Assembly: GCA_963814565.1 (NCBI GenBank)
Contig: CAWFDO010000012.1
Location: forward strand, 437 to 64,436
Length of the DNA: 64,000 bases
Source of the DNA: an uncultured Actinomycetes bacterium
GTDB taxonomy: Bacteria; Actinomycetota; Thermoleophilia; Gaiellales; Gaiellaceae
Direction of reading: 5' to 3'
Part shown: positions 315 through 54,667 of the stretch, piece after piece
Layout of the letters: every line of letters starts with the position of its first letter
Numbering within the stretch: position 1 is the first letter of the stretch
Translations under genes and position numbers: made by a program
Notes under the pieces: model-generated
The model's input: the letters and a program-made list of their open reading frames with translations, nothing else
The model's database searches: none
What the model was told of the DNA's origin: nothing

Positions 315-1133
315 TCAGCTCAGCGCTGAGATCGCCGCGTACGCCACGACGCGCCGCCTCGTCCACGCGGCAGCGCCCAGAACCCGTCGGGCGTCGAGAA
401 GATCTCGACGTCGAGCGTGCCGTCCCAGCCGGCGGATGCGCAGACGCGTCCACGAGCGCTCGTCGGACCGCCGTCGGGCTCGGGAAGTTCGCGGTCGCCC
501 GGGTCGGACTCCGTCGGCTCGTCGGCGACATGGAGCCCCGTGATCCGATCCGACACGCGCCGCGACGACGGCCTCTCGTCGGCCCGAGGTTGTACGTGTC
601 GGCCATGATCCCGACGTCGCCGAGCCCGGCCTCGTCGAGCAGGGCGAGGGCGTCTGCGATCGAGTTCACGAAGCCCGTCGACGTCGCGCTGCGGCGGGTG
701 GATCGGCTCGAAGCCCGAGTCGGACACGGCCTCGGCGCCGCACGTCCGCGACGCGCCGGAGGCCGTCGATCGACGAGTCGCGGCCCTCGTCGTCGGAGCG
801 CGCCGCCGAGCGGCCCGGTGAGGCAGAGGATCGCACTCCGGGTCGTACGCGGCCAGGCGCCGGACCGAGTCGCAGATCGCCTCGATCCGCTCCTCGGGGT
901 CGGCGGGGCCCTCCATGCCCGGGATCGCGAGCGGGAGGAATCGACGGGACCGTCGGGACGCAGTTCGAGACCGCCAGCCCGTGCTCGGCAGGAGCGCGCG
1001 GTTCGCGGCGTCGTCGTCGGGGAGCTTGAACTCCCAGATCCCGATCGCGTCGAAACCCGCTGCCGCGTACGCCAGCGACGTCCTCCTCGAACGACGCGTT
1101 CACCGTCGAGATCGCCGAGAGCGACCGCTTCAC
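315..1133 (-). CDS. Sugar-phosphate isomerase/epimerase (xylose isomerase-like TIM barrel), frameshifted in this sequence
   Basis: Stitched frames give MKRSLSAISTVNASFEEDV..AAAGFDAIGIWE..FEPIHP..GIMADTYNL..GLHVAD..LDVEIFS (E/D/H/E metal motifs); GTG overlaps upstream TGA. Confidence 0.75.
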
Positions 1134-2767
1134 GAGCGTCCTGGAAGCTTTGCAACAAGGCGGCGTGTCAGCGGCGGCTTCGTCAGCTCCTTCGCGACGA
1201 GGTAGCCGGAGCCCGCGCCCAGCCCCGGGCCCGGGTGGGTGCTCGCCCCGACGTGCCACAGGCCTTCGACGGTCGTGCGTGGCCCGGGCGCCGCGCGAAC
1301 GGCCGCCAGAGGAGGTTCTGGTCGAGCGCGCAGCTCCCGGCGTAGATGTCGCCGTCGACGAGGTTGCAGTTCAGGCCTCGAGGTCGACGGGGGAGAGGAC
1401 CGACGCGCTTCAGGGTCGCGGCCTCGAGGTTCTCGATCGAGTCGCCGAGCCGGCGCGACGATCCGGTCGGCGTACGCCTCGCGGAGCTCCTCGGTCCACG
1501 TGCCGTCGCCGACGTCGAGCTCGCCGGCGGCGTCGCCCTTGACCCGCCCGGCCGGCAGCTCCTGGAGCTGGATCCAGACGATCCACTTCCCGTCCGGCGC
1601 ACGCGACGGATCGACGGCGCACGGCTGGCCGACGACGATCGTCGCCTCGGCCGGGAGCAGGCCGCGCTCGGCCTCGTTGACCGCGCGCGAGACGCCGTCC
1701 AGGCCCGGCGTGACGTGCACGATCGCCGTGCGCGCCAGGCGGTCGGCCTCCGGCCCTTCCAGCGCGGCGGCTCGTCCATCGCGATGTGGATCTGCATCCC
1801 GGCGCGGCCGTAGCGGTAACGCTCGGCCGCGGAGCGGACGTCCGGCGGCGACGTCGCCCGGGCGGAGGAGCGAGCCGTAGAGCTGCGTCGGCGTGACGCC
1901 GGCGACGACGGCGCGCGTCGCGGTGACCGTCTCGCCGTCGGCGAGCGCGACGCCGATCGCGCGGCCGCCCGAGACGGTGATCCGCTCGACGTGCGCGTCC
2001 GTCCGCAGCTCTCCGCCGGCGTCCGTCACGATCCCCGCGAGTGCGTCGACGAGCTTGACTCCGCCGCCGACGGGGACGGGCATCCCGCCGAGTTGGATCG
2101 CGCACGCGATCACCTGGGTCATGAACCCCGAGACGGCGTTGTCGGGACCGAGCCCGGTGTGGAGAACCCACGGCGCGAGGAGCCCGTGCGCCTGCTCCGA
2201 GCGGAACGTCGCCGTCGTCCAGTCGCGGCACGTCGCAAGCGCGTGCCCTGCGAAGTCGAGGAGGCCGCGGCGGCCGAACCGGCGGAGCATCGCGCTGCCC
2301 GAGGCCGAGTCCGGCCGTCGACCAGAGCTCGGTCCCGAGGACGCCGAAGCTGACGTCCGCGTTCGCCATGAACTCCTCGAACTGGCGCTGCCACGCCGCG
2401 CCGTCGCCCTCGGCGAAGCGGTCGAACTCGGCGACGTTCGCCTCGAGCGACGTCTGGAGGAACATCGCGGAGCCGTCCGGGAACGCCGTCGCGGTCGGGA
2501 GCTCGGTGTTCAGGTACTCGAGGCCGCGCCGGTGGAGCTCGTCGCCGAGCTCGGCGTACGCCGCGGAGCCCTGGAACAGCGGATGCCAGGAGCTCAACAC
2601 CTCGTGCGTGAAGCCCGGAAGCGTGTAGTCCGGCACGGTGCGGATCGCGCCGCCGAGCCGGTCGGAGCGCTCGAGCACGCAGACGCTCCAGCCGTCCCGG
2701 GCGAGCAGCGCCGCGGCCGTCAGCGTGTTGATCCCCGAGCCGACGAGCACCGCGTCGAACGCGCCAT
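1130..2767 (-). CDS. Phytoene dehydrogenase (CrtI)-like NAD(P)/FAD-dependent oxidoreductase, frameshifted
   Basis: FDAVLVGSGINTLTAAALLARDGWSVCVLERSDRLGG FAD fold; PVGGGVKLVDAL; C-terminal LWHVGASTHPGPGLGAGSG. Confidence 0.85.
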
Positions 2768-2773
2768 GGGGCG

Positions 2774-2826
2774 ACGCTACCACGGCTCGAGCACCTTGAC
2801 ATGTCACCGGGTGCGGTGTGCAGAAT
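2774..2826. promoter_or_regulatory. Divergent leaderless promoters with palindrome TGACATGTCA (2797-2806)
   Basis: Plus-strand -10 CAGAAT 2821-2826 is 6 nt before ATG 2833; minus-strand TGgTAGCGT is 6 nt before ATG 2767; the palindrome overlaps TTGACA 2796-2801. Confidence 0.7.
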
Positions 2827-2832: not shown

Positions 2833-3685
2833 ATGCTGCTGCGTGAGGTCTCGTACGCGCGTCCGGCCACCGTCGACGAGGCGGTCTCCCTTCTCGCCGA
2901 GCACGACGGGGCGCGTGCGCTCGCAGGTGGCCAGACGCTGGTCAACGTGATGAAGCAGCGGGCCGCCTCGCCCGACGTGCTCGTCGACCTCGCGGGACTC
3001 GACGAGCTCCGCACGATCTCCGTCTCCGGGTCGACGCTCGAGATCGGCGCGATGGCGACGCTGACCGTCGCTGATCCGCTCCTCCGAGGTCGAGGTGACG
3101 CGGCCGATCCTCGCCGAGGTCGCGGCCACGGTGGCCGACGTCCAGGTGCGAAACCGCGGGACGCTCGGCGGCAACATCTGCGTCAACGACCCGACGAACC
3201 ACTTCCCGCCGCTCCTCGTCGCGCTCGGCGCCTCGATGACCATCCGCAGCGTCGGCCGGCGAGCGAACGGTCGGGGCCGACGACTTCTTCGTCGGCGTGT
3301 TCGAGACCGCGGTCCGCGAGGGCGACCTGCTGACCCGGATCAGCATCCCGGCCGGCGGCAAGGGCACCGGCGACGGGATGGCGGGCGTGACGCTCGGCGC
3401 GCACGGGACGTACATCGCGAACGCGGCGGCCTCGGTCGTCGACGGCGCGTGGCGGGTCGCGCTCGGGTGCGTCGCGGCGGTGCCGGTGCGGGCCACCGCG
3501 GTCGAGGAGCGGCTCGCGGGCAGCGAGGTCGACGAGGCGCTCGCTGCGCGAGGCCGTCGAGGGCCTCGGCGCGTCGCTCGACCCGCCGTCCGACGTCCAC
3601 GCGCTCGGCCGACTACCGGCGCAGCCTCGCCGAGACGTCCGTCGTCCGCGCAGTCCTCCAGGCATCCGAGCGAGCGAAGGGGTAG
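2833..3685 (+). CDS. Molybdenum hydroxylase FAD-binding medium subunit (CoxM/XdhB-like), frameshifted
   Basis: [49 protein letters not shown]. Confidence 0.9.
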
Positions 3686-3687: not shown

Positions 3688-4173
3688 GTGCCGACACCGA
3701 CAACGAGTCAGTTCGTCACCGTCACGGTGAACGGCCTCACGGTCGAGAAGGAGGTGCCCGCGCGCCGTCTCCTCGTCCACCTCCTCCGCGACGACCTCGA
3801 CCTGACCGGGACGCACGTCGGCTGCGACACGGGCAGCTGTGGGGCCTGCACCGTCCAGCTCGACGGCAGTTGCCTGTGAAGAGCTGTGCAGTGCTCGCCG
3901 TCCAGGCGGACGGCGCCCGCGTGACGACGGTCGAGGGGCTTGCCGGGCGACAGAGCGAGACGCCGCTCCAGCGGTCGTTCGCCGAGCACCACGCGCTGCA
4001 GTGCGGCTACTGCACGCCGGGGATGCTGATGAGCGCGACGCGCGTTGCTCGCCGACAACCCGAGCCCGAGCGAGGACGAGGTCAAGGTCGCGCTCCAGGG
4101 CAACATCTGCCGGTGCACGGGGTACTGGAACATCGTCGAGGCCGTGGTCGCGGCCGGGAAGGCGTCGGCATGA
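3688..4173 (+). CDS. Molybdenum hydroxylase 2Fe-2S small subunit (CoxS-like), frameshifted
   Basis: [19 protein letters not shown]; QCGYCTPGM; GNICRCTGY. Confidence 0.92.
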
Positions 4174-6630
4174 GCGTCACCACGAGCGAGGAGACCACGA
4201 CGCTCCAGAAGGGGTTCGTCGGGCAGAGCGTCCCGCGCAAGGAGGACCGCCGTCTCGTCGAGGGCCAGGGGGTCTTCTTCGACGACGTCAAGCGGCACGG
4301 GATGGGCTACCTCCACTTCGTGCGCTCGCCGTATGCGCACGCGCGGATCGAGTCCGTCGACGTCAGCGCCGCGCTCGCGCTGCCCGGCGTGTACGGGACG
4401 CTGACGGGCGACGAGGTCGCGATCCTGACCGACCCGTTCTTCCAGATCGCCGCCGAGCCCGGCGGCAGCGTCAAGGACTACGCGCTCGCCGTCGGCAAGG
4501 TGCGCTACCTCGGCGAGCCGGTCGTCGCGGTCGTCGCGGAGACGAGGCGAGCTCGCACGCGACGCCGCGGAGCTCGTCCTGGTCGACTACGAGCCGCTCG
4601 ACGTCATCGTCGACGCGCGGAAGGCGCTCGAGGACGGAGCACCGCGTCCTCCACGAGGAGTGCGGCGGGAACATGTCCTACAGCGGCGTCTGGGAGTGGG
4701 GTGACCTCGACGCGGCGTTCGCCGAGGCGGACCACGTCGTCAAGATCTCGGAGCTCCACTTCGACCGCTTCAACTCGACCCCGCTCGAGCTCGACGGCGC
4801 GCTCGTCGAGTTCAACCGCGGCACGGGGCAGTGGACGATCACGACCAACAACCAGTTCCCCGGGTTCGCCGTGATCATGATGGCGCCCGGCGATGCGGGT
4901 CGGCACCGACAAGCTGCGCATCGTCACGCAGGACATCGGCGGCGGCTTCGGCAACAAGATCACCTCGCACCCGCAGCTCGTCGCGTGCTGCCTGCTCGCC
5001 CGGAAGCTCAACCGGCCGATCCAGTGGACGGAGTGGCGGACGGACTTCCACCAGTCGATGTCGCACGGGAACGAGCGCTGGTTCCTGGACACCGAGGTCG
5101 CGGTCACGGCCGACGGCACGATGCTCGGCTTCCGCACGAAGGCGATCGACGACGCGGGCGCGTACCTCCGCTACGAGCCGCTCGGCGGCGTCATCTGGGC
5201 ACAGGTCTCGCCCGGCATGTACCGGTGGCGCAACATCCGCGTCGAGTTCACGCAGGCGATGACGAACAAGGCGCCGTGCTCGCCGAATCGCGGCTACTCG
5301 CGGATGCAGCACCTGTGGCTGACGGAGCGGATCATCGACATCGTCGCCGCCGAGCTCGGCATGGACCGCGTCGAGATCCGGCGGAAGAACTACGTCCAGC
5401 CCGAGGACATGCCGTACGAGACGCCGAACGGGTGCGTCTACGACTCCGGCGACTACCCGCGTGCGCTCGACATGGCGCTCGAGCTGATCGGCTACGACAC
5501 GATCGAGGAGCGCCGCGCGGAGGCGGCCTCGCGCGGCAAGCTGCTCGGCGTCGGGATCGGCTCGACGCTCGACTCGGGGACGAACAACTTCGGGCAGTCG
5601 CAGCTCCTGAACCCCGACCTCCAGTTCTCGGGCAACAACGAGGTCGCGACGGTCAAGCTCGACATCTTCGGCGAGATCGTCGTCACGCTCGGGACGACGC
5701 CGCAGGGGCAGGGTCACGAGACGACGGCCGCGCAGGTCGTCGCGGACATCCTCGGCTGCGACGTCGACATCGTCCACGTCCGGGCGGGGCACGACAGCTA
5801 CTGGAACTCGCACGCGGGCTTCTCCGGCACGTACGCGAGCCAGTTCGCCGTCACGGGCCTCGGCGCGGTGAAGGGCGCGACCGACATGCTCGCCGAGCAG
5901 ATGAAGACCCTCGCCTCGATGGTCTTCCAGTGCCCGATCGAGGCGATCGAGCTCGCCGACGGGTTCGCGCGGATCAAGGACAACCCGGAGGCGGCGCTGC
6001 CGTTCATGGCGCTCGGCGCGATCCCGAACGCGAACAACGCCGGGTTCCCGGTCGACCCGCCGCCGATGAACGCGCGCTTCGTCTACCGGCCGCCGTTCGA
6101 CGTGCCCGACAAGGAGCGGAAGTTCGGGAAGCTGACGCTGACGTACGCGATGCAGATCCACGCGTGCGTCGTCGAGGTCGACCCCGAGACGGGCGTCTAC
6201 GAGATCCTCGACTACGCGGCCGTCGACGACTGCGGCGTGCGGATCAACCCGCAGATCGTCGAGGGCCAGGTGATGGGCGCGACCGCCCACGCGATCGGCG
6301 CCGCGATGTTCGAGTCGTTCACGTACGACGAGGAGGGCAACCTCCTGACGCCCAACTTCTACGACTACCACGTGCCGCACACGCTCGACATGCCGCCGCT
6401 GCAGACGGCGGCGATCGAGTCGCCCTCGCCGTTCACGCCGCTCGGCACGAAGGGGATGGGCGAGGGCGGCGGCGGCGGGATCCACTGCATCGGGGCGGCG
6501 CTGCAGGATGCGCTCCGCGCAGTCCGGCGGCGCGCTCGTGACCGACAGCCACAACCCGTACCACCGCGTCTGGGAGATGCTGCGCGAGCCAGAGCGGTCA
6601 CGTTCGAAGGTGGAGGTGACGTCGAAGTGA
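4170..6630 (+). CDS. Molybdopterin-binding large subunit, xanthine dehydrogenase/CoxL family (not CO dehydrogenase), frameshifted
   Basis: [17 protein letters not shown]; DIGGGFGNK; active-site loop PNRGYSR; QGQGHET; GTKGMGEGG with catalytic Glu. Confidence 0.9.
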
Positions 6631-7084
6631 AGCTCGAGGGGACGAAGGAGTTCGACGCGCCGCGCGAGGTCGTCTGGAGCGTGATCAACGACCCGTCGAA
6701 GATGGCGAAGACGATGCCGGGCGTCGAGAGCTTCGAGATCGCGGACGACAGGCACTGGAGCGCCAAGGTGAAGGTTCCGCTCGGGCTCGGCGGGCTCAAG
6801 ATGTCGATCGCCTTCACGAAGCTCGAGGAGCGGCCGCTCGAGTTCGCGTCGCATGAACGCGAAGGGGCAGGGCGTCGGCGCGCATGATGAACATGACGAC
6901 CTCGTTCTCGCTCTCCGGCGAGGGGGACACGACGTCGATGGCCTGGGAGGCCGACGTCAAGATCGCCGGCCCCGTCGGCTCGATGGGGCAGCGCGTGCTG
7001 CAGCCGATCATCAACCAGCAGGTCGGGAACGTGCTCGCGGCGCTCGACGCCGAGGTGCAGGCGGCGAAGACCGCGGCCGGATAG
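6627..7084 (+). CDS. coxG: CoxG/SRPBCC-family accessory protein, frameshifted
   Basis: [47 protein letters not shown]; GTGA overlap with the large subunit. Confidence 0.8.
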
Positions 7085-7159: not shown

Positions 7160-9985
7160 GTGCCTCGGCGCCGGCGGCGTGTGCCTGATACCGGCGATCA
7201 CCTCGAGTTCAACGTCCTCGGCCCGCTCGAGGTCCGGCGGGACGGAACGGCGCTTCCGCTCGGCGGCCGGCGCCAGCGCACGTTGCTCGCATGTCTGCTG
7301 CTTCGTCGCAACGAGGTCGTCCCGCGCGAGCAGTTGATCGACGCAGTGTGGGGCGACACACCGCCGGCGAACGGGACGAACTCGCTCCAGGTCGCGGTGC
7401 ATGGGCTACGACGGCTTCTTGGCCATGATCGTGTGCGGGCGGAGCGGGATGGGTACGAGCTCGTGGTCGCCCCGGACGAGCTCGATCTCGACGAGTTCGA
7501 GCGCGCTGCAGGCCGCGCGCGCCGCGGAACCGCCACGGCTGCGGAGCTCCGGAAGGCGCTGTCGCTCTGGCGGGGTGTCGCCGCATCCGATACGTATCCG
7601 AGCCGCGTTCGCAACGAGCTCGCGCGCCTGGATGAGCTGCGGGTCTTCCTGATCGAGGAGCGGATCGACGCAGACCTCGCCTCGGGTCGCCATGCAGGGC
7701 TTGTCGAGGAGATCGAATCGCTTCTGGCGGAGAGCCCCTACCGGGAGCGTCTTCACGCTCAGCGACTCCTCGCGCTCTATCGCACCGGGCGGCAGGCGGA
7801 CGCGCTGGAGGCGTACGCGGCTGCGCGACGCATGTTTGTCGATGACCTCGGGCTCGAGCCGGGGCCGGAGCTTCGCAACCTCGAGGCGCGCATCCTCCGT
7901 CAGGATCCGGACCTCGACGCGCCACGCCCCGTTCCGGCGCTGATCGGCGCTCCGCTCCCGGTGCCGCCGACGCCGCTGGTCGGTCGCGGTATCGAGCGCG
8001 CGGCTGCTGCCGCACTCCTCCGGCTCCCCGAGGTGCGGCTTCTCACGCTGACCGGCGTCGGCGGTTCCGGCAAGACACGGGTGGCGTTGGCCGTGGCCGC
8101 GGATCTGGGCGGCGAGTACGCCGACGGCGCGCACTTCCTCGACCTCGCCCCGTTGCGCAAACCCGAGCTCGTGCTCGGCGCGATCGCCCGTCTCCTGCGC
8201 GTGCCCGAGACCGATGGGCGGGCGGCGCTCGAGGCGCTCGCCGAAGCTTTGGGCGACCGCGAGCTCTTGCTGGTTGCTGACAACTTCGAGCACCTGCTGG
8301 ACGCTGCGCCAGCCGTGGTCGCGCTCCTGGCCGCGCTGCCCGGCCTGGACATCCTCGCGACGAGTCGTGCGCCCCTCCGTCTCGCGGCGGAGCGCGAGTA
8401 TCCGATCCGTCCGCTCGAGCTGCCAACGGGAGGGAGCAGCGTCGACATCGGCACACTCGGTCGAAACGACGCAGTTGCGCTGTTCACGGCTCGGGCCAGC
8501 GCGGTGCAACCGTCGTTCGAGCTCACGAGCGAGAATGCGGCCGCGGTTGCGGAGATCTGCGTCGCGGTCGACGGCCTGCCGCTCGCGCTCGAGCTGGCCG
8601 CCGCCAAGATGAGGCTGCTCCCGCCCGCCGGGCTCCTCGAGCGACTTCACGGCCGCTTGGACACCTTGACGGCGCGCGCCCGGGACGTCCCCGAGCGGCA
8701 ACGCACCATCCGCGCGACGATCGACTGGAGCTACGACCTGATCGGCTCGTCGGAGCAGCACCTGTTCGCTCGGTTGTCGGTGTTTCCCGCCGACTTCTCG
8801 TTCGAGGCAGCCGAGAAGATCTGCGACGCCACGATGGACACGTTGGAGGCGCTCGTGGACAGCAGCCTTCTGCAGCCGGCGGGTGAGGGACGCTTCAGGA
8901 TGCTCGAGATCGTCCGTCAGCGCGCGGCCGAGTACCTGGTCGAAGCGGGCGAGACCGACGCGGTCGGACGGCGACATCTCGACTTCTTCCTCGAGCTCGG
9001 CGAGAAGCTTCGACCAAGCCTTCGAGGTGCAGGTTCCGAGGCAGGGTTTGCAACCGTCGAGCGCGAGCACGACAACTTCCGAAGCGCGATGGTCTTCGCC
9101 CGCACGAAAGGCCTGAACGAGGTCCAGCTTCGACTGGCGCGCGCGATCCACCGGCTCTGGTACCTGCGCGGCTACCTGAGCGAAGGACGTGCCTGGCTGG
9201 AGGAGGCACTGGCCGCCGACGGCCCGCACATGCCTCAGCTGAGAGCGCAGGCGCTTGCCGGGTTGGGCGCGATCACGTGGCGCCAGGGTGATCTTCCGGC
9301 GGCCGAGTCGTACGCTTCGGAGGCGCTCGAGCTCCTCCGTCAGCACGGTGAGGAGCAGGAGCTGGTTGGCCCGTTGAGCATCCTCGGCGTCGTGGCCGCG
9401 AGTCGCGACGACTACGCCCGCGCGTCGGAGCTCTACGAGGAGATGGAGTCGCTCGCCCGAGCGGTCGGCGACGGCTACGGGCTCGCGATGTCGTTCAACA
9501 ACCAGGCGTATGCGGCCTGGATGACCGACGACGTGTCCCGGGCGGAGCAACTCTGGAAGTCGTGTCGGGAAGCGGCCGGCAACGCCGAGACGACCGAAGT
9601 CATGGCGCTGGCGATCAGCGGCCTCGGCGACATCGCCCTTGCGCGTGGTGACCTCGGGCGCGCCGGACGCCAATTTCGCGAGGCGCTCGCGGTCTACTCA
9701 CAGCTCGGGTTTCCCGACCTCGAGGCCGACATGTGCGTCTGTCTGGCCGCGGTCGCCGCAAGGGAGAATCAGCTCGAGCGTGCTGCGCGTCTGCTCGGCG
9801 CTGCCGCCTCCTTGCGCCGAGTCGGCGGGACCATCGAGCCGGCGGTGCTCGGCTACCTCGACGAGGCGACGGCCGCCGGTCGGGCGGAGCTAGGCGATGC
9901 GACGTTCGCTGCTTCCTTCGGACGCGGTCGGGCGGCACCCGGTGACGTCCTCGACGAGGAGCGAGCGAGGGCCGAAGCACGATGA
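7160..9985 (+). CDS. AfsR/SARP-type regulator: winged HTH + BTAD + NB-ARC-like ATPase + TPR
   Basis: FNVLGPLEVRRDG..LGGRRQRTLLA; ESPYRERLHAQRLLALYRTGRQADAL; P-loop GVGGSGKT; LLVADNFEHL; DGLPLALELAA (alternative start GTG 7181). Confidence 0.92.
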   Translation: MPRRRRRVPDTGDHLEFNVLGPLEVRRDGTALPLGGRRQRTLLACLLLRRNEVVPREQLIDAVWGDTPPANGTNSLQVAVHGLRRLLGHDRVRAERDGYELVVAPDELDLDEFERAAGRARRGTATAAELRKALSLWRGVAASDTYPSRVRNELARLDELRVFLIEERIDADLASGRHAGLVEEIESLLAESPYRERLHAQRLLALYRTGRQADALEAYAAARRMFVDDLGLEPGPELRNLEARILRQDPDLDAPRPVPALIGAPLPVPPTPLVGRGIERAAAAALLRLPEVRLLTLTGVGGSGKTRVALAVAADLGGEYADGAHFLDLAPLRKPELVLGAIARLLRVPETDGRAALEALAEALGDRELLLVADNFEHLLDAAPAVVALLAALPGLDILATSRAPLRLAAEREYPIRPLELPTGGSSVDIGTLGRNDAVALFTARASAVQPSFELTSENAAAVAEICVAVDGLPLALELAAAKMRLLPPAGLLERLHGRLDTLTARARDVPERQRTIRATIDWSYDLIGSSEQHLFARLSVFPADFSFEAAEKICDATMDTLEALVDSSLLQPAGEGRFRMLEIVRQRAAEYLVEAGETDAVGRRHLDFFLELGEKLRPSLRGAGSEAGFATVEREHDNFRSAMVFARTKGLNEVQLRLARAIHRLWYLRGYLSEGRAWLEEALAADGPHMPQLRAQALAGLGAITWRQGDLPAAESYASEALELLRQHGEEQELVGPLSILGVVAASRDDYARASELYEEMESLARAVGDGYGLAMSFNNQAYAAWMTDDVSRAEQLWKSCREAAGNAETTEVMALAISGLGDIALARGDLGRAGRQFREALAVYSQLGFPDLEADMCVCLAAVAARENQLERAARLLGAAASLRRVGGTIEPAVLGYLDEATAAGRAELGDATFAASFGRGRAAPGDVLDEERARAEAR

Positions 9986-10002: not shown

Positions 10003-10025
10003 TGTTAGTGTCGGTGACATGTCAC
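10003..10025 (+). promoter_or_regulatory. Extended -10 promoter with palindrome GTGACATGTCAC (10014-10025)
   Basis: TGtTAGTGT 10003-10011 followed by a perfect 12-bp palindrome over the expected start site. Confidence 0.7.
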
Positions 10026-13763: not shown

Positions 13764-13777
13764 GGCCGCAAGTTACA

Positions 13778-15790: not shown

Positions 15791-15794
<4 letters not shown>
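14844..15794 (+). CDS. DUF6282-like metal-dependent amidohydrolase-fold protein
   Basis: DYHVHIAPD; GFGLKSH; IVWFPT; LCTGH; VVTHP; ATDLGQ. Confidence 0.7.
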
Positions 15795-18191
<2,397 letters not shown>

Positions 18192-18223
18192 GCGACCATC
18201 ACGCCGCCGGACCGGCGGTCACC

Positions 18224-33474: not shown

Positions 33475-33476
33475 AT

Positions 33477-35411: not shown

Positions 35412-35431
35412 CGGAAAGAACTCGCCGATGC

Positions 35432-35461: not shown

Positions 35462-35494
35462 ACGGACACCTGCCTGCGAGGGTCGAGCGAATAG

Positions 35495-42158: not shown

Positions 42159-42175
42159 TGACACGACAGTAGGAT
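42159..42175 (+). promoter_or_regulatory. Leaderless promoter (TAGGAT) preceded by degenerate operator TGACACGACA
   Basis: 8/10 match to TGACATGTCA at 42159-42168; -10 at 42170-42175, 6 nt before GTG 42182. Confidence 0.5.
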
Positions 42176-44915: not shown

Positions 44916-44926
44916 CGCCGCCCGCA

Positions 44927-45556: not shown

Positions 45557-45606
45557 TTGACTGTCATGTCAGAGGGGTGGGATACTTCACCACGTTGACA
45601 TGTCAC
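45557..45606 (+). promoter_or_regulatory. Sigma70-type promoter with two operator copies
   Basis: -35 TTGACT 45557-62; TGgGATACT -10 ending 45586; TGTCATGTCA 45562-71 (9/10) and TGACATGTCA 45596-605. Confidence 0.75.
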
Positions 45607-47827: not shown

Positions 47828-49015
47828 ATGACGAGAAGGAAGACAGGAGCGCTCGCGGCGGCGCTCGCAACGCTCACCGCGATCGTCGCGATCACCGCCG
47901 CGTCCGCACCGGCGGCGTCGAGCGACCCGATCGTGATCGGCTGGGCGTTCGACGGCAACGGCGCCATGGCGCCGTTCGACGGGCCTGCGCTCGCGGCCGC
48001 CCAGATCCGCGTCAAGCAGGTGAACGCCCGGGGCGGCGCCAACGGTCGCAGGCTGCAGATCGTGACCTGCAACACGCAGGGCAACAAGCCGGCGATCGCG
48101 CGGGCGTGCGCGGCGCGGTTGCTCTCGCGGGGAGCGGACGTCATCTTCACGACGTGCGACGTCGACTTCGCGGCGCCGGTCGTCCAGGAGACGATCAACC
48201 GCGGCGTCCTCGCGGTCGCGCCGTGCATCGGCACCGACCAGATGGGGCCGAAGCGCTTCGGCGCCAAGGGACGGCTCGCGTTCTCGTTCGGGAACGTGGC
48301 GCAGGACGAGGGATCGGCGATGGCCGAGTTCGCGTGGAGCAAGGGGTGGCGGAACGCAAGCCTCGCGACCGACACGGTGATCGTCTACTTCCGTGATGTC
48401 GTCAAGGCGTTCAAGGCGCGGTTCACGCAGCTCGGCGGCAAGATCGTCGCGGAGGAGAGCTACCAGTCGCTCGGCTCGACGAACATCACGAACGCCGTCA
48501 CGCGGTTGAACGGGCGTCAGGCGGACGTGATCGTGACATCGACGGCGGGCGCGTTCGGCGCCCTCCCGCAGATGATCTCGGGGCTGCGCACGCTCGGGAA
48601 CAACACGCCGGTGCTGAACTCCTGGGCCGGTGACGGGGTCTACTGGGTCACGAAGGAGCCGCAGGTGACGAACTACTACTTCGTCACCTACGCGTCGATC
48701 TTCGGCGACGACCCGGTCGGCGCGGTCAACGCGCTCGCCAAGGCCCTCAAGGCCGGGACGGGCGGGTTCGTGACGGGCTCCGCCGCCGTCGACGGCGTGG
48801 TGACCGCGATCAAGCGGTCACGCGGGTCGACGAACGGCGTCGTGCTCGCCGCGACGATGGAGAAGTTCAGGAAGGTCCCGACGCTCTCGGGCCTCGTGAG
48901 CTTCTCGCCGTCACTGCACTCGGTGTTCGGCCGGCAGTACCGCGTGATCCAGATCCAGAACAACCAGGGCAAGCGCGTCGGCTCGGTCGTCGCGAAGGTC
49001 GTCCCGAAGATCTAG
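47828..49015 (+). CDS. ABC substrate-binding protein (HAAT family)
   Basis: Signal peptide; NARGGANGRRLQIV; TCDVDFAAP. Confidence 0.88.
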   Translation: MTRRKTGALAAALATLTAIVAITAASAPAASSDPIVIGWAFDGNGAMAPFDGPALAAAQIRVKQVNARGGANGRRLQIVTCNTQGNKPAIARACAARLLSRGADVIFTTCDVDFAAPVVQETINRGVLAVAPCIGTDQMGPKRFGAKGRLAFSFGNVAQDEGSAMAEFAWSKGWRNASLATDTVIVYFRDVVKAFKARFTQLGGKIVAEESYQSLGSTNITNAVTRLNGRQADVIVTSTAGAFGALPQMISGLRTLGNNTPVLNSWAGDGVYWVTKEPQVTNYYFVTYASIFGDDPVGAVNALAKALKAGTGGFVTGSAAVDGVVTAIKRSRGSTNGVVLAATMEKFRKVPTLSGLVSFSPSLHSVFGRQYRVIQIQNNQGKRVGSVVAKVVPKI

Positions 49016-49181
49016 ATGGTCGACCGGCGATTCCCGCGAACCGGATGGCGCCCCAGACGCGTCGCCGGATCACCCCGTCCGGGCACGGCCCGTAGTGCCA
49101 GCTACGAGCCGCGCCCGGCCGGTGCGCCCGGCTTGGTCTGGGACGCCCCCGGACGTCACGCCAATCACCGGTCGACCATCT
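49014..49181. repeat. 168-bp imperfect palindrome between the SBP and ATPase genes
   Basis: AGATGGTCGACCGGCGATT vs reverse complement of AATCACCGGTCGACCATCT (18/19); nested inner stems. Confidence 0.75.
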
Positions 49182-49199
49182 CGGGACGGCTCGGATCGG

Positions 49200-49971
49200 C
49201 ACCGACGTAGCGCCGCAGGACGATCGGCGGCCCGGAGGAGCGCTCCGGGCCGCCGATCTCGCGCGCTCGTTCGACGGTGTCCAGGCGGTTCAGGGCGTCT
49301 CGCTCGCGCTCCACCGCCACGAGGTCGTCGGGCTGATCGGCCCGAACGGCGCCGGCAAGTCGACCCTCGTCAACCTTCTGACCGGCTTCGACCTGCCGAC
49401 CGCGGGGTCGGTCGAGCTCGACGGCCGCGACATCACACGCTGGAGCGCGAGCCGGCGCGGGAGGCACGGTCTCGCACGGACGTTCCAACACAGCCACCCG
49501 TTCCGGTCGCTCTCCGTGCGGGAGAACGTCGAGGTGTCGTCTCTCGGCGTGGGTGCGTCGCCGGCGACGGCACGGCGCACCGCCGACGAGCTGCTCGGGC
49601 TGCTCGGGCTCGACGACTACGCAGACGGGCCCGCGGGTGCGCTCGCGCACGGCGACGAACGGCGCCTCGGGGTCGCGCGGGCGCTCGCGACGCGGCCGAG
49701 CTTCGTCCTCATGGACGAGCCGGCGGCGGGGCTGCCCGAGGCGGAGGTGCCGGAGTTCGCCTCTGTGGTGCGGTCCGTTCGCGACGAGCACGGTGCCGGC
49801 GTCCTCCTGATCGACCACAACATGGCGCTGATCATGGAGGTCTGCGACCGGATCCAGGTCCTCGACCACGGACGGACGCTCGCGGAGGGCACGCCGACCG
49901 AGATTCGCGCGAACCTCGACGTGGCCGCCGCCTACCTCGGCGAGAGCGCCGTCCACGAAGGGCCGTCGTGA
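49200..49971 (+). CDS. ABC ATP-binding protein (LivG-like); start codon not evident
   Basis: Open frame from about 49100: LARSFDGVQAVQGVSL..GPNGAGKST; MDEPAAGL; IDHNM. Confidence 0.82.
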
Positions 49972-50681
49972 CGGGGCCCGGGCTGACCGTCACGGACCTC
50001 GAGGTGCGCTACGGCCCGGTGGCCGCCGTCCGCGGGGTGTCGTTCGAGGTGGCGCCCGGCGAGATCGTCGGGCTGATCGGGCCGAACGGCGCCGGGAAGT
50101 CCTCGACCCTGCACGCGATCATGGGGCTCGTCCGGGTATCCGCCGGCGACGTCCGCCTCGGCGATCGCTCCCTCCGTGGACGACCACCCGAGGCCGTCGC
50201 GCGGAGCGGGATCGCGCTCGTCCCCGAGGGGCGCCGGATCTTCGGCGAGCTCACCGTCGACGAGAACCTCCGCCTCGGGCTCTCCGGACGACGCTCGCCG
50301 GACGGTGCGGCCGAGGACGTCGACCAGGTCCTCGAGATGTTTCCGGTCGTGGCCGAGTTCCGCGGGCGGCACGCCGGAGCGCTGTCGGGCGGCCAGCAGC
50401 AGCAGCTGGCGATCGCACGTGCCCTCGTCGCGGCTCCCGACGTCCTGCTCCTCGACGAGCCGTCGCTCGGGCTCTCCCCGACGGTCACCGACGCGGTCTT
50501 CGAGGTGCTCGCCGCGATCCGCGACCGCGGCATCGCCGTGCTCCTCGTCGAGCAGCGCGCGCAGCGGACCGTGGCGCTCGCGAACCGCTCCCTCGTCCTC
50601 GCGAACGGGGAGATCCGCCTGACGCTCACCCCCGACGACGCCGGAGACACCGAGCGCATGATCCACGCCTACCTGTCATGA
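49968..50681 (+). CDS. ABC ATP-binding protein (LivF-like)
   Basis: GPNGAGKSS; VPEGRRIF; LSGGQQQQLA; DEPSLGL. Confidence 0.9.
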   Translation: MTGPGLTVTDLEVRYGPVAAVRGVSFEVAPGEIVGLIGPNGAGKSSTLHAIMGLVRVSAGDVRLGDRSLRGRPPEAVARSGIALVPEGRRIFGELTVDENLRLGLSGRRSPDGAAEDVDQVLEMFPVVAEFRGRHAGALSGGQQQQLAIARALVAAPDVLLLDEPSLGLSPTVTDAVFEVLAAIRDRGIAVLLVEQRAQRTVALANRSLVLANGEIRLTLTPDDAGDTERMIHAYLS

Positions 50682-51619
50682 GCGTGGTCGCAAGCGGGCT
50701 CACCGACTTCCTGCGCGCGGCGATCGAGCCGCAGGTGCAGGTCGACGCGATCGGCATCGGCGCGGTCTACGCTCTGATGGCCGTCGGCATCGGCCTCGTC
50801 TTCGGCGTGCTGCGTCTCGTCAACTTCGCCTACGGCCAGCTCGTGATGGCCGGGGCGTTTGCCCTCGCCTTCGCGTCAGACCAGGACTGGCCGGTCTGGC
50901 TGGGCATCGTCCTCTGCTTCGCCGTCGTGCTCGCGCTGTCCGCGGCGATGGACCGCATCGTCTTCCGGCCGTTGCGGACCCAGTCGGCGGCCACGATGCT
51001 CGTCGCCACGTTCGCGGTCGCGTTCCTCCTGCAGGCGATAGCGCTCCTCATCGACCAACGTGACGACACGCTCGGGGAGCCCGCGGCCTCGCTCGCGAAG
51101 CTCAACCTCCCGTGGACGATTTTCGGGACCGACGTGCGCAAGATCACCGTCGTCGCCATCGTCACCGCGGCCGTGTGCCTGATCGCGCTCGTGCTCTTCC
51201 TCGGCCGGACGAAGGTCGGCCTGCAGATGCGCGCGGCGGCGATGGACTTCCAGACCGCCCGGCTCCTCGGCGTCCGCGCGAACCGGGTGATCGGCTCGGC
51301 GGTCCTGCTCTCGGGGATCCTCGCCGCGATCGTCGCGGTGATGCTTACGGTGCAGCAGCCCCTCGTCACGTCGACCTTCGCCCTGCGGGAGACGATCGTC
51401 GTCCTCGCCGGGGTCGTCGTCGGCGGCATGAACCGGTTGCTCTCGGCGACGCTCGGCGGCTTCGCGATCGGATACGCGTCCGGGCTGCTCGGCGGCGCGC
51501 TCCCGACCGCGCAGAGCCAGTACCTGCCGTCGTTCCTCTTCGGCCTCGTGATCCTGACCCTGCTTGTACGGCCCGGCGGGCTCTTCACGCGTGGTCGCGG
51601 GCCGGTGGAGCGCGTATGA
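50678..51619 (+). CDS. ABC permease (LivH-like)
   Basis: GIGLVFGVLRLVNFAYG; LVRPGGLF. Confidence 0.9.
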   Translation: MSVVASGLTDFLRAAIEPQVQVDAIGIGAVYALMAVGIGLVFGVLRLVNFAYGQLVMAGAFALAFASDQDWPVWLGIVLCFAVVLALSAAMDRIVFRPLRTQSAATMLVATFAVAFLLQAIALLIDQRDDTLGEPAASLAKLNLPWTIFGTDVRKITVVAIVTAAVCLIALVLFLGRTKVGLQMRAAAMDFQTARLLGVRANRVIGSAVLLSGILAAIVAVMLTVQQPLVTSTFALRETIVVLAGVVVGGMNRLLSATLGGFAIGYASGLLGGALPTAQSQYLPSFLFGLVILTLLVRPGGLFTRGRGPVERV

Positions 51620-52635
51620 GGCAACTGCGCACGTTCCTGCCCGTGCTCGCGCCCGTGGCGCTCGTCGTCGCGACGGGCGTCGTCGGGACCTTTTTCGAGC
51701 GCTCGACCGAGATCTACTTCATCAACGCGCTCGTCTCGGTGTCGATCGTGGTCGCCATCTACCTCTTCGTCGGCAACTCGGGCGTCCTCTCGTTCGGGCA
51801 CATCAGCTTCGTCGCCGTCGGTGCATGGACGGCGGGCGTCCTCTCGGTGGCGGTGGAGGAGAAGCCGGCGACGATGCCCAACCTCTTCGGGTTCCTTTCG
51901 GACACGACCGTCGGCAACGTTCCGTCGCTCCTGCTCGCGGCGCTCGTCGGCGGCGTCTTCGCGCTCGTCGCAGGCCTCCCGCTGATGCGGCTCTCCGGCC
52001 TCGCCGCCGGCATCGCCACGTTCGCCGTGCTCGAGATCACGAGCAACATCCTTCGCTACCAAGAGCGGATCGGCCCGGGGCTCAACGTCTTCTCGTCGGT
52101 GCCGGAGACCACCGACATGCAACAGGCCGCGATCGGCGCCGTCGTCGCGATCGCCGTCGCATTCGCATACCAGGTGAGCCGCTTCGGACGGCAGCTGCGC
52201 GCCGCGCGCGACGACGCACCGGCGGCCCGCGCCGTCGGCATCTCGGTGTACCGTCAGCGGCTGATCGCCTTCGGGCTCTCCGGTGCGCTCGCGGGCTTTG
52301 CCGGCGGGCTGTACGTCCACTTCCTCCCGATCAACGTCGACGCCGTCTACCTCGACCTCACGTTCATCACGCTCGCGATGCTCGTGATCGGCGGCATGAC
52401 CAGCCTGTGGGGCGCCGTCGTCGGCGCGCTCGCCGTCTCGGGGCTCGACTCGCTGCTCGCGGAGGCCGAGAACGGCGCCTTCCGCATCGACCTCCCCTCG
52501 GGGAGCCGGATCGTCGTCGTCGGCGCGCTGATGGCGCTCGTGCTGATCCTGCGGCCCGAGGGCATCACGGGCGGGAGAGAGGTGCCGTTGGGCCGCCTCG
52601 CACGCGCGCGGACGGTGAAGGAGGGAGCGACATGA
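51616..52635 (+). CDS. ABC permease (LivM-like)
   Basis: SGVLSFGH; GRQLRAARDDAPAARAVGI; ILRPEGITG. Confidence 0.9.
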   Translation: MRQLRTFLPVLAPVALVVATGVVGTFFERSTEIYFINALVSVSIVVAIYLFVGNSGVLSFGHISFVAVGAWTAGVLSVAVEEKPATMPNLFGFLSDTTVGNVPSLLLAALVGGVFALVAGLPLMRLSGLAAGIATFAVLEITSNILRYQERIGPGLNVFSSVPETTDMQQAAIGAVVAIAVAFAYQVSRFGRQLRAARDDAPAARAVGISVYRQRLIAFGLSGALAGFAGGLYVHFLPINVDAVYLDLTFITLAMLVIGGMTSLWGAVVGALAVSGLDSLLAEAENGAFRIDLPSGSRIVVVGALMALVLILRPEGITGGREVPLGRLARARTVKEGAT

Positions 52636-53552
52636 GGATCTGCGTCGTCGGCTGCGGAGCGGTGGGGTCGCTGTTCGCCGCAAATCTCGCGACCCTCGAC
52701 GACGTCGACGTGTGGGCGTTCGACCTGAACAGAGCGCATGTCGATGCGATCAAAAAGAACGGATTGCAATTGACCGGCGCGGGCGAGGTCGTCGGCCGAC
52801 CGAATGCCACCTCGGACGCCGGCGAGCTGCCGCCGTGCGAGTACGGGATCGTTGCGACGAAAGCGATGCACGCCGACGGCGCGATCGCCGCGACGGCGCA
52901 CGCGTTCGCCGACGGTGCGGTCGCGTCGGTGATGAACGGCGTCGGCAACGAGGAGACGCTCGCGGAGCACGTGGAGCGCGTGATCCGCGGGACGACCTTC
53001 CCGGCGGGGAAGCTGCTCGAGCCCGGCGTCGTGCAGTGGGACGTCAAGGGCGACACGACGTTCGGGCCGTTCGAGCCACGGCCGATCGACGTCGCGGCGA
53101 TCGAGCCGCTCGCCGACGCGTGCACCCGCGCGGGAATGCCGGCCGCAGCGGTCGGCGACGCGCGCCCGGGCCAGTGGCGCAAGGTGATCTTCAACGCGGC
53201 GACGAATCCAATCGGCGCGCTGACCGGGCTCACGCACGGCCGCGTCTGCGAGCGGCCCGACCTGCGCGCCCTCGTCTCCGGGCTCGTCGACGAGGGCACG
53301 GCGGTCGCCACGGCGCAGGGAATCGTGCTCGACGCCGACCCGGAGGAGCTCATCGACCACGCCGCCCGTCCCGACGTCGCGTACGGGCACAGGGCTTCGA
53401 TGCTGCAGGACGTCGAGGCCCGGCGGGCGACGGAGATCGACTACCTGAACGGCGGCATCGCACGCTTCGGGCGCGAGCTCGGCGTGCCGACGCCGCTCCA
53501 CGACGCGGTCACCGCACTGATCAAGGGGGTAGAGGCTTCATGGCAACAGTGA
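52632..53552 (+). CDS. Ketopantoate reductase-like 2-oxoacid reductase, copy 2
   Basis: VVGCGAVG; MNGVG; WRKVIFNAATN; ASMLQDVEARRATEIDYLNG. Confidence 0.9.
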   Translation: MRICVVGCGAVGSLFAANLATLDDVDVWAFDLNRAHVDAIKKNGLQLTGAGEVVGRPNATSDAGELPPCEYGIVATKAMHADGAIAATAHAFADGAVASVMNGVGNEETLAEHVERVIRGTTFPAGKLLEPGVVQWDVKGDTTFGPFEPRPIDVAAIEPLADACTRAGMPAAAVGDARPGQWRKVIFNAATNPIGALTGLTHGRVCERPDLRALVSGLVDEGTAVATAQGIVLDADPEELIDHAARPDVAYGHRASMLQDVEARRATEIDYLNGGIARFGRELGVPTPLHDAVTALIKGVEASWQQ

Positions 53553-54667
53553 CTGACGTGAGATCCGACCTCGACCGCCGGTACGCGAACGTCCGTGCTG
53601 CGATGGCGGAGCACTCGCTCGACGCGCTCGTCGTCGCGGGGAGCGAGTACTCGGGCTTCGAGGGCGCCGTGACGTATCTGACCGGCTTCCAGATCGTGCA
53701 CCGGTACGCGTACGCGATCGTCCCCGCCGACGGCGACCCGTTCGTCGTCTTCCCGTCCGAGGCGCGCTACGTCGGAGAGCACGGTACGGCGCTCGTCGAG
53801 CAGCGCTTCGATCCGCACCCGGGCACGGCGATCGCCGCGCACGCGAGGGACGCGGGCTGGCGGCGCGTCGGCGTGTACGGGCTCGACTACGTGATGACCG
53901 TGCGGGACTACCGGCCGCTCGAGGGGCTCGACCTCGTCCCGTTCGACGTCGAGTTCGATCTTGCGCGCGCGGTGAAGAGCGACCTCGAGCTGGAGAGCGT
54001 GCGCGACTCGGTGCGAATCAACCGGCGCGGCTTCGAGGTCTGGGCCGAGGCCTACGCGCCCGGCCGGACCGCGGCCGAGGTGATGGCGGTCGCCGAGGAG
54101 TACTTCATCGCCGAGGGCTGCGGCCGGCTCACGATGAACATGGTCCTGACCGCGCCGGGACGCTCGGGCATCGCGCTGCCGGAGTTCAAGATCGCGCGCA
54201 AGGAGGAGATCCTCGGCGACTTCGTCCTCCCGTCGCTCGAGGTGGCCGGCCCCGGGATGCACTGGGTCGAGGTGTCGCGCGCCGTCGCGGCCGAGGGGAC
54301 GGAGCTCTCGGACGACACGAGGGCGATGGAGGATGCCTACGTCGAGTACTTCGAGGCGGCCCGGGGCGCCATGCGGGCCGGTGCGACGTGCCACGACGTG
54401 CACACGGCCGTCTCGAAGGGCTTCCACGACCGCGGGTACCACCTGGGGCACGTCACCGGCCACTCGATCGGGATGACGATGATCGAGTTCCCGAAGGTGG
54501 GGGAGGGCGTCGAGACCGAGCTCGCGGAGAACATGGTGCTGTCGATGCATCCGCACGCGATCGCCGCCAACGGCGAGGACTGCCTTTACATGCAGGACAC
54601 GTGGCTGGTGACGGCCGAGGGCGGCGTTCCCCTGGCAGATCTGCCGATGGAGATCGTCGTCCGGTGA
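53540..54667 (+). CDS. M24/creatinase-fold hydrolase lacking canonical metal ligands
   Basis: VTYLTGF; RAVKSDLELESVR; GHSIG; LSMHPH; YMQDT. Confidence 0.82.
   Translation: MATVTDVRSDLDRRYANVRAAMAEHSLDALVVAGSEYSGFEGAVTYLTGFQIVHRYAYAIVPADGDPFVVFPSEARYVGEHGTALVEQRFDPHPGTAIAAHARDAGWRRVGVYGLDYVMTVRDYRPLEGLDLVPFDVEFDLARAVKSDLELESVRDSVRINRRGFEVWAEAYAPGRTAAEVMAVAEEYFIAEGCGRLTMNMVLTAPGRSGIALPEFKIARKEEILGDFVLPSLEVAGPGMHWVEVSRAVAAEGTELSDDTRAMEDAYVEYFEAARGAMRAGATCHDVHTAVSKGFHDRGYHLGHVTGHSIGMTMIEFPKVGEGVETELAENMVLSMHPHAIAANGEDCLYMQDTWLVTAEGGVPLADLPMEIVVR

Follow-up and report, generated by a model that had tools for sequence, protein, structure and literature searches.

In Aromatoleum, the anaerobic iaa route combines molybdenum (Mo)-dependent hydroxylation to an oxindole, lactam opening by a hydantoinase and control by a GntR protein. 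The accessible part of PMC9613470 names this locus, which leads from indoleacetate to 2-aminobenzoyl-CoA, and the accessible part of PMC6221969 gives oxindole as the first product of oxygen-independent attack on indole, and 3-hydroxyindolin-2-one as the compound into which IifCD and IifB convert indole. Here we describe a gene cluster in a 64,000-nucleotide stretch of DNA ("the window") from an uncultured Gaiellaceae bacterium (GenBank assembly GCA_963814565.1, contig CAWFDO010000012.1) whose promoters carry copies of the palindromic 10-nucleotide motif TGACATGTCA. Our overall reading, to which we give slightly less than an even chance, is that a self-regulating repressor of the GntR/FCD type, encoded at an unlinked site, acts on TGACATGTCA, and that the cluster, which is split in this genome, imports and degrades an N-heteroaromatic compound of the indole/tryptophan pool. 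An initial annotation of the window had proposed a single repressor-controlled pathway, encoded in two halves, for an N-heterocycle that it could match to no described route. The lack of a match is supported by our comparisons of gene sets and by a literature search, in which (with most subscription journals outside coverage) the motif, the regulon and the cluster were nowhere described; the terms "phytoene" and "COG1233" do not occur in 13 supplementary files of PMC9613470, two more files lying outside the search.

The motif and the cluster that it marks

Perfect copies of TGACATGTCA lie at 2797..2806, between the divergent genes for a CrtI-like enzyme and the Mo-hydroxylase subunit CoxM; at 10015..10024, upstream of the first of two genes for luciferase-like (LLM) proteins, LLM1; and at 45596..45605, upstream of the second, LLM2. 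The copies and their rarity, both claimed initially, were borne out: dinucleotide shuffles of the window (n = 100) gave a mean of 0.01 copies, and none reached 3. They are also the only perfect copies in the whole assembly (3.26 Mb in 28 contigs, 73.75% complete), which has 11 one-mismatch copies, including the degenerate copy at 45562..45571 (9/10). The other degenerate copy that had been claimed, at 42159..42168 (8/10), is likewise present, with two mismatches. Matches with at most two mismatches number 6 in the window versus 9.8 expected, which is chance level, so the 42159 copy is uninformative on its own and needs footprinting across orthologous promoters; there it is backed by a perfect or one-mismatch site at the same position in 24 of 80 distinct promoters.

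All five sites are intergenic, as first stated, and adjoin promoter-like hexamers. Read by eye, the 2797 site overlaps the -35 positions of both divergent promoters, the 45562 site overlaps a -35-like TTGACT, the 45596 site comes 3' of a -10-like GATACT, the 42159 site immediately precedes and abuts TAGGAT, and the 10015 site comes after TAGTGT. On these sequence grounds, such placement at promoter elements suggests repression.

The motif is present in 24 of 24 genomes of the same genus, at 1 to 7 copies each, and 10 of 16 further genomes from the order have it too; the reversed-motif control was found 0 times in 41 of 41 genomes. Several of the copies outside the genus stand at unrelated places, often over an ATG. 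The loci compared came from Gaiella, Gaiellaceae, Gaiellales, Thermoleophilia and uncultured Actinomycetota records at 74-96% identity. LLM2 orthologues are preceded by a perfect site in 17 of 20 loci and in 57 of the 77 GTDB loci with enough flank (80 fetched), and the 45562/45596 pair recurs together with the hexamer GGGATACT (17/20 with a perfect proximal site). When distinct promoters were pooled, perfect sites preceded coxM in 26 of 40, LLM1 in 31 of 62 and LLM2 in 62 of 91, and were nearly absent before internal genes, namely those for the M20 amidohydrolase (0/55), the second of two M24-fold hydrolases, M24b (0/76), the importer component LivK (0/80), a fumarylacetoacetate-hydrolase-family (FAH) protein (0/54) and a homocitrate/isopropylmalate-synthase-like enzyme (1/71). 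The idea of one regulon came through this comparison unrefuted and is supported by it. Two properties of the sample weigh on the other side: part of the promoter pool consists of loci that were fetched through the motif itself, which inflates the positives, and the compared genomes are kin and not independent of one another. We regard TGACATGTCA as almost certainly a real operator.

In relatives, the usual gene order is coxM-S-L-G, LLM1, M20, FAH, M24a, synthase-like, (RidA, flavin reductase), LLM2, PanE1, livKGFHM, PanE2, M24b, and the CrtI-like and TIM-barrel genes are often divergent from coxM. That the two halves seen in the window form one cluster, as had been claimed, was borne out by their co-occurrence, with a left-half gene at most 10 kb from LLM2 in 27 of 80 relatives' loci. 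The gap in the window (14735-42182, 27.4 kb) falls between FAH and M24a and holds an aromatic-degradation block (14844..42123) that has no site with one mismatch or fewer. This block encodes a DUF6282 protein, a catechol 2,3-dioxygenase, a LigM vanillate/3-O-methylgallate demethylase (above cut-off), LigK-like and PIG-L proteins, two Liv-type ATP-binding cassette (ABC) sets, IclR and MarR regulators, a CoA ligase, pcaIJHGBCF and pobA, and its right part lies upstream of M24a in 30 of 80 relatives' loci. The operator at 42159 is nearly confined to loci with the block between FAH and M24a: a site with at most one mismatch precedes M24a in 23 of 30 loci with the aromatic block upstream, in 0 of 14 with FAH directly upstream and in 1 of 10 others. 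The simplest reading is that a new operator-bearing promoter would have arisen at M24a after the insertion, probably once, because the loci carrying the split are kin. Genes for pcaI/pcaJ-like CoA transferases stay beside M24a in three loci although most pca genes are gone (L084, L126, L130), and these might supply CoA activation.

The motif also occurs away from the cluster. A second Liv-type ABC importer elsewhere in the genome has a perfect copy in many members of the genus (L025, L035, L036, L040, L068, L195, L196, L205, L209, L217, L229, L230); in other genera this importer adjoins the cluster, and it was not found in our own assembly. In six loci (L027, L028, L070, L183, L197, L222), a perfect motif also precedes the gene for a two-domain glyoxalase-fold protein whose start resembles a signal peptide; this protein is 56% identical to the product of a gene in a Mesorhizobium loti plasmid locus described below. 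The motif precedes a 2-oxoacid:ferredoxin oxidoreductase gene in three genomes (G020, G006, G050; L067, L193, L280), without being kept at the oxidoreductase promoter of our own genome, and a gene resembling that for pyruvate phosphate dikinase (PPDK) in one (L032), and a one-mismatch copy precedes a phosphoenolpyruvate (PEP)-carboxykinase-like gene in our own genome (G000, contig C14, 127211). A RutA/SfnG-like LLM gene, about 70% identical to genes of Nocardioides, Pseudonocardia and Kribbella, is motif-preceded together with a flavin reductase gene in G008 and G017, and in G026 it belongs to the cluster itself (L023, L214, L231).

A candidate repressor encoded elsewhere in the genome

The initial annotation placed the repressor outside the window, and the comparative evidence supports this. 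A scan of our own genome (G000) returned 68 intergenic sites with at most two mismatches, one of them 20 nt before a GntR gene on contig C24 (25545-26201); the gene divergent from it encodes what we take, from its motifs, to be a MoaD-MoaE fusion, which a profile scan did not confirm. The GntR gene is found in 23 of 24 genus genomes (it is missing from one that is 54% complete) and in 0 of 16 others. All of the first 25 GntR loci have TGTCATGTTA or TGACATGTTA at -19 to -21, and a variant of the motif lies 19-28 nt before the GntR start in 37 of 37 distinct promoters (1 perfect, 9 one-mismatch, 27 two-mismatch), compared with a background of 33 such matches before 3112 genes of our own genome. 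Both deviations of these promoter sites (TGTCATGTTA, TGACATGTTA) are also seen at cluster sites, and a GntR paralogue in a different gene context has a site at its promoter as well. The gene is present in 10 of 10 further motif-positive genomes, and an orthologue in 2 of 15 motif-poor ones, plus one weak match at 39%. The protein itself pairs a winged helix-turn-helix with an all-helical FCD-type domain: all 10 of its PDB matches are GntR-type regulators over most of its length (including 3fms and 3sxy), and it matches NCBIfam TIGR03338 with E 6e-28, below the family cut-off; the Pfam FCD scan was made on the in-cluster GntR of another genome, G214. From this pattern, the C24 GntR/FCD protein is likely to be the binder of TGACATGTCA.

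Several points count against this assignment. The gene was chosen by scanning the 68 near-matches; genome G048 has the GntR without a perfect site, and G050 has a perfect site before its 2-oxoacid:ferredoxin oxidoreductase gene and no GntR that we could find; and the site at the GntR promoter might partly be kept as an extended -10 element. In addition, the motif fails the FadR-subfamily consensus GTM-N0-1-KAC given in the accessible part of PMC4494728, as AC precedes GT in TGACATGTCA, although the same source lists exceptions to that consensus, such as BioR and NanR.

Many motif-poor genomes carry a different GntR gene inside the cluster, whose promoter has TTGACAT(C/G)TGATCAA, with the TGACAT half in common; its product is 32% identical to the C24 protein over 130 amino acids (aa). 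The 20 family loci fall into 6 with perfect sites and no in-cluster GntR, 8 with the in-cluster GntR and no perfect site, and 6 that lack both. As regulation this is ordinary in its logic; what can be seen here is the rewiring of a regulon, in which one GntR took the place of another and an insertion was followed by an operator at a new promoter.

Other regulators were considered and rejected. The in-cluster GntR of L145, L146, G026 and G030 has no orthologue in the genus (best match 35%). A motif-preceded PadR gene is found at cut-off in 5 of 24 genus genomes, in 3 of them close, and not in our own; a motif-preceded MarR gene is likewise limited to 5 of 24; and the place of the SARP/STAND gene at 7181 in the window is not conserved. 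The PadR-family gene (L189, L038, L225, L279) has its own ATGTCA-N4-TGACAT-type site, which contains the motif, probably by overlap.

We also considered that the operator is real but bound by a more global factor, with the GntR site kept for some other reason and the regulon being a broad nutrient-scavenging set. The motif does mark a second Liv-type ABC set and the glyoxalase-fold protein, which is secreted; one or a few genomes also have it before 2-oxoacid:ferredoxin oxidoreductase, PPDK-like, PadR and MarR genes; it does not follow the FadR consensus (PMC4494728, accessible part); and GntR and motif presence fail to agree once in each direction. Against a global factor, 37 of 37 GntR promoters carry the site, one of them perfect, as does the paralogue in another gene context; the PadR and MarR candidates each reach only 5 of 24 genus genomes; in other genera the second ABC set has the cluster as its neighbour; and the glyoxalase shares 56% identity with the M. 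loti locus gene. We consider a global factor very unlikely and retain the unlinked GntR as the candidate.

Enzymes of the cluster and their likely substrate

Annotation was based on intact orthologues, since many genes of the window are frameshifted. On the minus strand, the left half holds a frameshifted xylose-isomerase-like TIM-barrel gene (AP_endonuc_2; 368..1133), a variable member placed by tblastn and by Pfam on an intact orthologue, and the gene for the CrtI-like flavin adenine dinucleotide (FAD) oxidoreductase (1130..2767, one frameshift). All other genes of the cluster are on the plus strand. The Mo-hydroxylase is encoded by a CoxM-like FAD subunit gene (2833..3685, frameshifted), a CoxS-like 2Fe-2S subunit gene (3690..4172, frameshifted, ends approximate), a CoxL-like large subunit gene (4170..6630, frameshifted in the first third) and a CoxG/SRPBCC subunit gene (6627..7084) that is a gene of its own in relatives. 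After a passenger whose place is not conserved, a SARP/AfsR-type BTAD-NTPase-TPR (STAND) gene (7181..9985), come LLM1 (10048..11080; core, frameshift near 10790), two further passengers for an S-adenosylmethionine-dependent methyltransferase and a SIMPL/DUF541 protein (11080..12530, start approximate), the M20 (ArgE/DapE-like) amidohydrolase gene (12527..13770; core, frameshift near the end) and the FAH gene (13845..14735; core). The right half begins with M24a, a core gene for a creatinase/prolidase-fold hydrolase (42182..43343) that a frameshift joins to the next gene in this assembly, the DRE-TIM homocitrate/isopropylmalate-synthase-like gene (43340..44536), whose orthologue keeps DTTLRDGEQ and HxH. 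The RidA-family (44526-44915) and flavin reductase (44927-45502) genes that follow (together 44526..45502) are variable members, and LLM2 (45624..46709), with a luciferase-type flavin monooxygenase fold, is a variable entry module. The half ends with a first PanE-like 2-hydroxyacid dehydrogenase gene (46880..47796; core, one frameshift, start approximate), the LivKGFHM-type ABC importer (47828..52635), a second PanE-like gene (52632..53552; core) and M24b (53549..54667; core, start approximate), a prolidase fold with a degenerate metal site and a conserved His. Genes for a methyladenine glycosylase, a 76-aa membrane protein and a subtilase, which lie downstream of it (54664-57931), are conserved as neighbours too, though probably for reasons of position alone.

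The gene families named initially stand, with two amendments: the FAH gene at 13845, a core member, had been omitted, and RidA is a variable passenger, like the SARP/STAND, methyltransferase, SIMPL and glycosylase genes. The apparent LLM-methyltransferase, M24-HMGL and CoxL-CoxG fusions are products of frameshifts in this assembly. These are likely assembly errors; several of the window's single-base indels are not common to four sequencing runs from relatives (mostly 85-95% identity).

Among the solved structures searched, no core enzyme has a characterised relative above about 35% identity, so that the matches are at the level of families; this counts against our overall reading. The active-site loop of CoxL, SPNRGYSR, aligns to the AYxCSFR loop of carbon monoxide dehydrogenase (CODH), without the CODH cysteine and with the catalytic Glu kept, and its best solved relatives are CODH (8uem, the top PDB score) and quinoline 2-oxidoreductase. 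LLM1 is nearest to Mer-type hydride-transfer reductases, which depend on coenzyme F420, but its best Mer profile matches fall below all cut-offs; cofD and cofE pass the profile cut-off in this genome, and LLM1 is also core in a Gram-negative lineage (see below). A cofC-cofD-npdG-cofE-type cluster (G000, contig C6, 182404-186219; L283) indicates that this Gaiellaceae genome probably makes F420. The model of LLM2 (predicted local distance difference test score, pLDDT, 83) matches luciferase-type monooxygenases at 26% identity or less. Of the two proteins initially annotated as LLM oxidoreductases, LLM2 alone has the look of a luciferase-type monooxygenase, and LLM1 is closest to hydride-transfer enzymes; a profile search with LLM1 yielded neither names nor gene context. 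M24a, read by eye, keeps a metal-binding set and is similar to prolidases and to ectoine hydrolase. In M24b the metal site is degenerate and a His is retained, as in creatinase-type hydrolases, and an ESM Atlas search with M24b returned M24 clusters only; JGI gene names proved generic. The DRE-TIM enzyme was considered as a 3-hydroxy-3-methylglutaryl-CoA lyase or an aldolase, and proved to be homocitrate/isopropylmalate-synthase-like instead. Neither a ring-cleaving dioxygenase nor a CoA ligase is found among the core genes.

On family resemblances, the same regulon could also serve a different ring. Candidates are a pyrrole, a pyrimidine, a heteroaromatic without nitrogen, or a quinoline acid such as kynurenate or quinaldate, which likewise derives from tryptophan. 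Of the two solved structures most similar to CoxL, one is quinoline 2-oxidoreductase (E 4e-114); many CoxL relatives are named 2-furoyl-CoA dehydrogenase by JGI; the RutA/SfnG-like LLM gene is part of the cluster in G026 and is motif-preceded in G008 and G017; and M24a resembles the ectoine hydrolase DoeA (E 5e-21). Set against this, the similarities are at family level (about 35% identity or less), and the cluster has no CoA ligase, a separate L-M-S-ligase set of the furoyl-CoA type lying on contig C15. We consider another ring unlikely. The C15 set (G000, 670605-676315) is a second, frameshifted Mo-hydroxylase set (L, M, S) followed by ligase-like and crotonase-like genes, in an hmfABCDE-like arrangement.

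The gene set is widespread. With M24a as the marker, it occurs in 66 of 85 sampled genomes of the family (a count that leaves out one unpublished genome) and in 1 of 314 other genomes of the class. Genome G214, from another actinobacterial class in which M24a is found in 1 of 143 genomes, has the same core with CrtI-like, LLM2 and liv genes and no synthase-like gene nearby. A metagenome scan with the G214 M24a yielded 80 loci of 58.5% mean GC content. All 28 of those at least 17 kb long have coxM, S and L, both PanE and both M24 genes, M20 and LLM1, in a different order, with FAH in 20, the synthase-like gene in 14 and LLM2 in 8. TonB-dependent receptors lie upstream in 27 of the 80, so the carriers are Gram-negative; our guess is Acidobacteriota. 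As the motif is found in 0 of the 80, the core is wider in range than the operator. Searches of plasmids gave no close LLM1, LLM2, M24a or M24b. In 32 of the 80 metagenome loci, a membrane-protein-like gene (about 350 aa, no Pfam match; L391 2000-3136, L427 2251-3288) is located between coxM and the gene for the TonB receptor. In several genera, the cluster end or a tryptophan dioxygenase (TDO)-like gene is followed by aldo-keto reductase, ornithine-cyclodeaminase-like and threonine-dehydratase-like genes (L327, L335, L323). Contig C25 of our own assembly (424 kb, 69% GC) has stretches of alphaproteobacterial-looking genes (CarD-like, ArgJ, SecA starts), possibly bin contamination.

We regard it as highly probable that the substrate is an N-heteroaromatic compound. 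This part of the initial annotation is kept; the pyridines, pyrazines, pyrimidines, purines and vitamins of its growth panel are less favoured by the evidence than rings derived from indole or tryptophan, with the pyridine carboxylates as a live rival. The indole evidence lies in the company that the cluster keeps. In G214, an IifC/IifB pair (59-63% identical to plasmid iif genes) flanks the cluster on one side and a second pair, for a monooxygenase and a short-chain dehydrogenase/reductase (SDR), on the other. In 5 of 20 family loci and in L145, L146 and G030, TDO-family genes occupy three different positions in or beside the cluster; 2 of 80 metagenome loci also have such genes there, and in G026 a gene of the PrnB family comes downstream of that for the TIM-barrel protein. 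The CrtI-like gene of the window is 47-49% identical to genes of iif/iad-type indole loci, and of five plasmid records inspected among 36 with CrtI-like relatives, four are iif-type or IorAB-containing indole loci, three of which include a cyclase and two a gene annotated as salicylyl-CoA 5-hydroxylase. In the fifth, from M. loti, there are two relatives of CoxL at 46-48%, two paired CrtI-like genes and an ABC set that matches an Alloyangia locus at 51-69% (64% for the binding protein); no indole oxygenase is annotated there, as if the Mo enzymes had replaced it. The second motif-marked ABC set is followed by a weakly kynureninase-like gene.

Other observations weigh against an indole-type substrate. 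The indole markers are accessory, none is in the window, and the IifBC link comes from one genome. Our own genome (74% complete) has no match to IifC, IorA, IorB, the cyclase or anthraniloyl-CoA monooxygenase, its TDO gene is on another contig with no site in the 120 upstream bases read, and CrtI or IifC is found in 0 of 80 metagenome loci. The score of the kynureninase-like gene falls far short of the family cut-off, and the M. loti locus also adjoins a nicotinate/maleamate-type cluster. On balance we put an indole- or tryptophan-derived substrate at about an even chance.

The M. loti neighborhood bears on a further possibility, in which the regulon and regulator are the same and the substrate is a single-ring pyridine such as picolinate, nicotinate or a hydroxypyridine. 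The Mo enzyme would form a pyridone, the Mer-like LLM1 would reduce it, and the M24 and M20 hydrolases would cleave the reduced ring to yield a C5-C6 oxo-acid, by the same logic as in the reductive fermentation of nicotinate. A core without a ring-cleaving dioxygenase suits a single ring, the closest plasmid CoxL adjoins nicX/F/E/D/C-type genes, NudC is in the G007 cluster, the genome has the F420 genes cofD and cofE, and 2-oxoacid:ferredoxin oxidoreductase promoters have the motif in G020, G006 and G050. Moreover, a four-part enzyme with a separate SRPBCC subunit is the architecture of HpdA, and an hpdA-like cluster is listed in Gaiella occulta in the accessible part of 10.1101/2020.01.08.898148. 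However, the genome has no match to NicX, NicD, NicE or NicC (only NicF-like isochorismatases elsewhere), NicX is in 0 of 80 metagenome loci, the PEP-utilising and PPDK-like partners that HpdA requires were not seen in the clusters read, and a pyridine leaves the repeated recruitment of IifBC, TDO and PrnB-type genes unexplained. We consider a pyridine rather unlikely, and we keep the indole/tryptophan pool as the preferred source.

Proposed pathway and comparison with known systems

In the model that we propose, whose order of steps is part of the proposal, a GntR dimer would sit on the core promoters until the substrate or an intermediate released it. The four-part Mo-hydroxylase would add water-derived oxygen beside the ring nitrogen to give a lactam of the oxindole type, and LLM1, together where present with LLM2 and flavin reductase or the CrtI-like enzyme, would alter the redox state of this lactam. 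Opening of the lactam and removal of acyl or amino groups would then fall to the two M24-fold enzymes and the M20 enzyme, leaving 2-hydroxy and 2-oxo acids to be processed by the two PanE-like, the FAH and the homocitrate-synthase-like enzymes. It is possible, if somewhat unlikely, that this amounts to an undescribed core route for an indole/tryptophan-derived ring, free of dioxygenases and CoA ligases, in most Gaiellaceae and a Gram-negative soil lineage, with interchangeable entry modules (LLM2, CrtI-like, IifBCD, TDO, PrnB-type), control moved from an in-cluster to an unlinked GntR that reads a non-canonical operator, and a new site gained on the split.

Gaiellaceae are common, mostly uncultured soil actinobacteria. 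Their carbon and nitrogen sources are poorly known, and a marker present in 66 of 85 genomes is almost a trait of the family; the recurrence of this core in a lineage that looks unrelated suggests that the substrate is widespread. If it were auxin or a close indole acid, the cluster would represent a large unrecognised soil sink for that compound. An operator with a candidate repressor makes the question of the inducer testable.

Among regulatory systems, the closest are the ligand-released regulons of the GntR/FadR subfamily, as described in the accessible part of Suvorova et al. 2015 (PMC4494728). These share a GntR winged helix-turn-helix protein with an FCD-type domain, palindromic sites on core promoters, single and double sites, a weaker autoregulatory site and carboxylate-type catabolic targets. 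They differ in that the site here is TGAC-AT-GTCA rather than GTM-N0-1-KAC, and in that the regulator is unlinked from its targets.

Among catabolic systems, the iif clusters (IifBCD, IifA; PMC6221969) and the iad/IorAB auxin loci (PMC9613470, PMC12633357), as given in the accessible parts of these sources, share CrtI-like relatives at 45-49% and ABC import, and in G214 alone IifC/IifB flank the cluster. Unlike them, our cluster lacks the Rieske IadCDE, CoA ligase, thiolase, cyclase and IorAB; the window has no IifC/IifD or IifB, and IifA was not among the matches of a general scan, no dedicated IifA search having been made. Entry here would be by the Mo-hydroxylase, and the core of LLM1, M20, M24a, M24b and the PanE pair is not in those loci as described. 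The Aromatoleum iaa route, set beside ours by description and not by sequence, is alike in proposed logic only, as our core lacks a hydantoinase, B12 mutase, CoA ligase and acyl-CoA dehydrogenase and has M24-fold hydrolases, LLM proteins and PanE-like enzymes instead.

The 3-hydroxypyridine dehydrogenase (HpdA) cluster and the pic/nic clusters, likened by architecture and not by sequence, share the four-part Mo-hydroxylase with a separate SRPBCC subunit, an ABC importer and a GntR gene (10.1101/2020.01.08.898148, accessible part). Our cluster has no maleamate-pathway genes and no PEP-utilising/PPDK partners, and its CoxG, at about 150 aa, is shorter than HpdA3 with its membrane tail. Form I aerobic CODH (CoxMSL, CoxG) is alike in its subunit set and gave the best PDB score (8uem), but we rejected this identity for CoxL, whose loop SPNRGYSR replaces that of the Cu-binding cysteine and whose NCBIfam score is 420 against a cut-off of 991. 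A 2-furoyl-CoA dehydrogenase system (hmfABCDE) was also rejected: no CoA ligase and crotonase-fold gene stand beside the Mo subunits, and the fitting set, recognised by sequence, is the one on C15. Measured against the gene sets that define iif, iad, 3hpd, hmf and form I CODH, the cluster matches none; by inference, it would work like the Mo-initiated heteroaromatic routes under GntR control.

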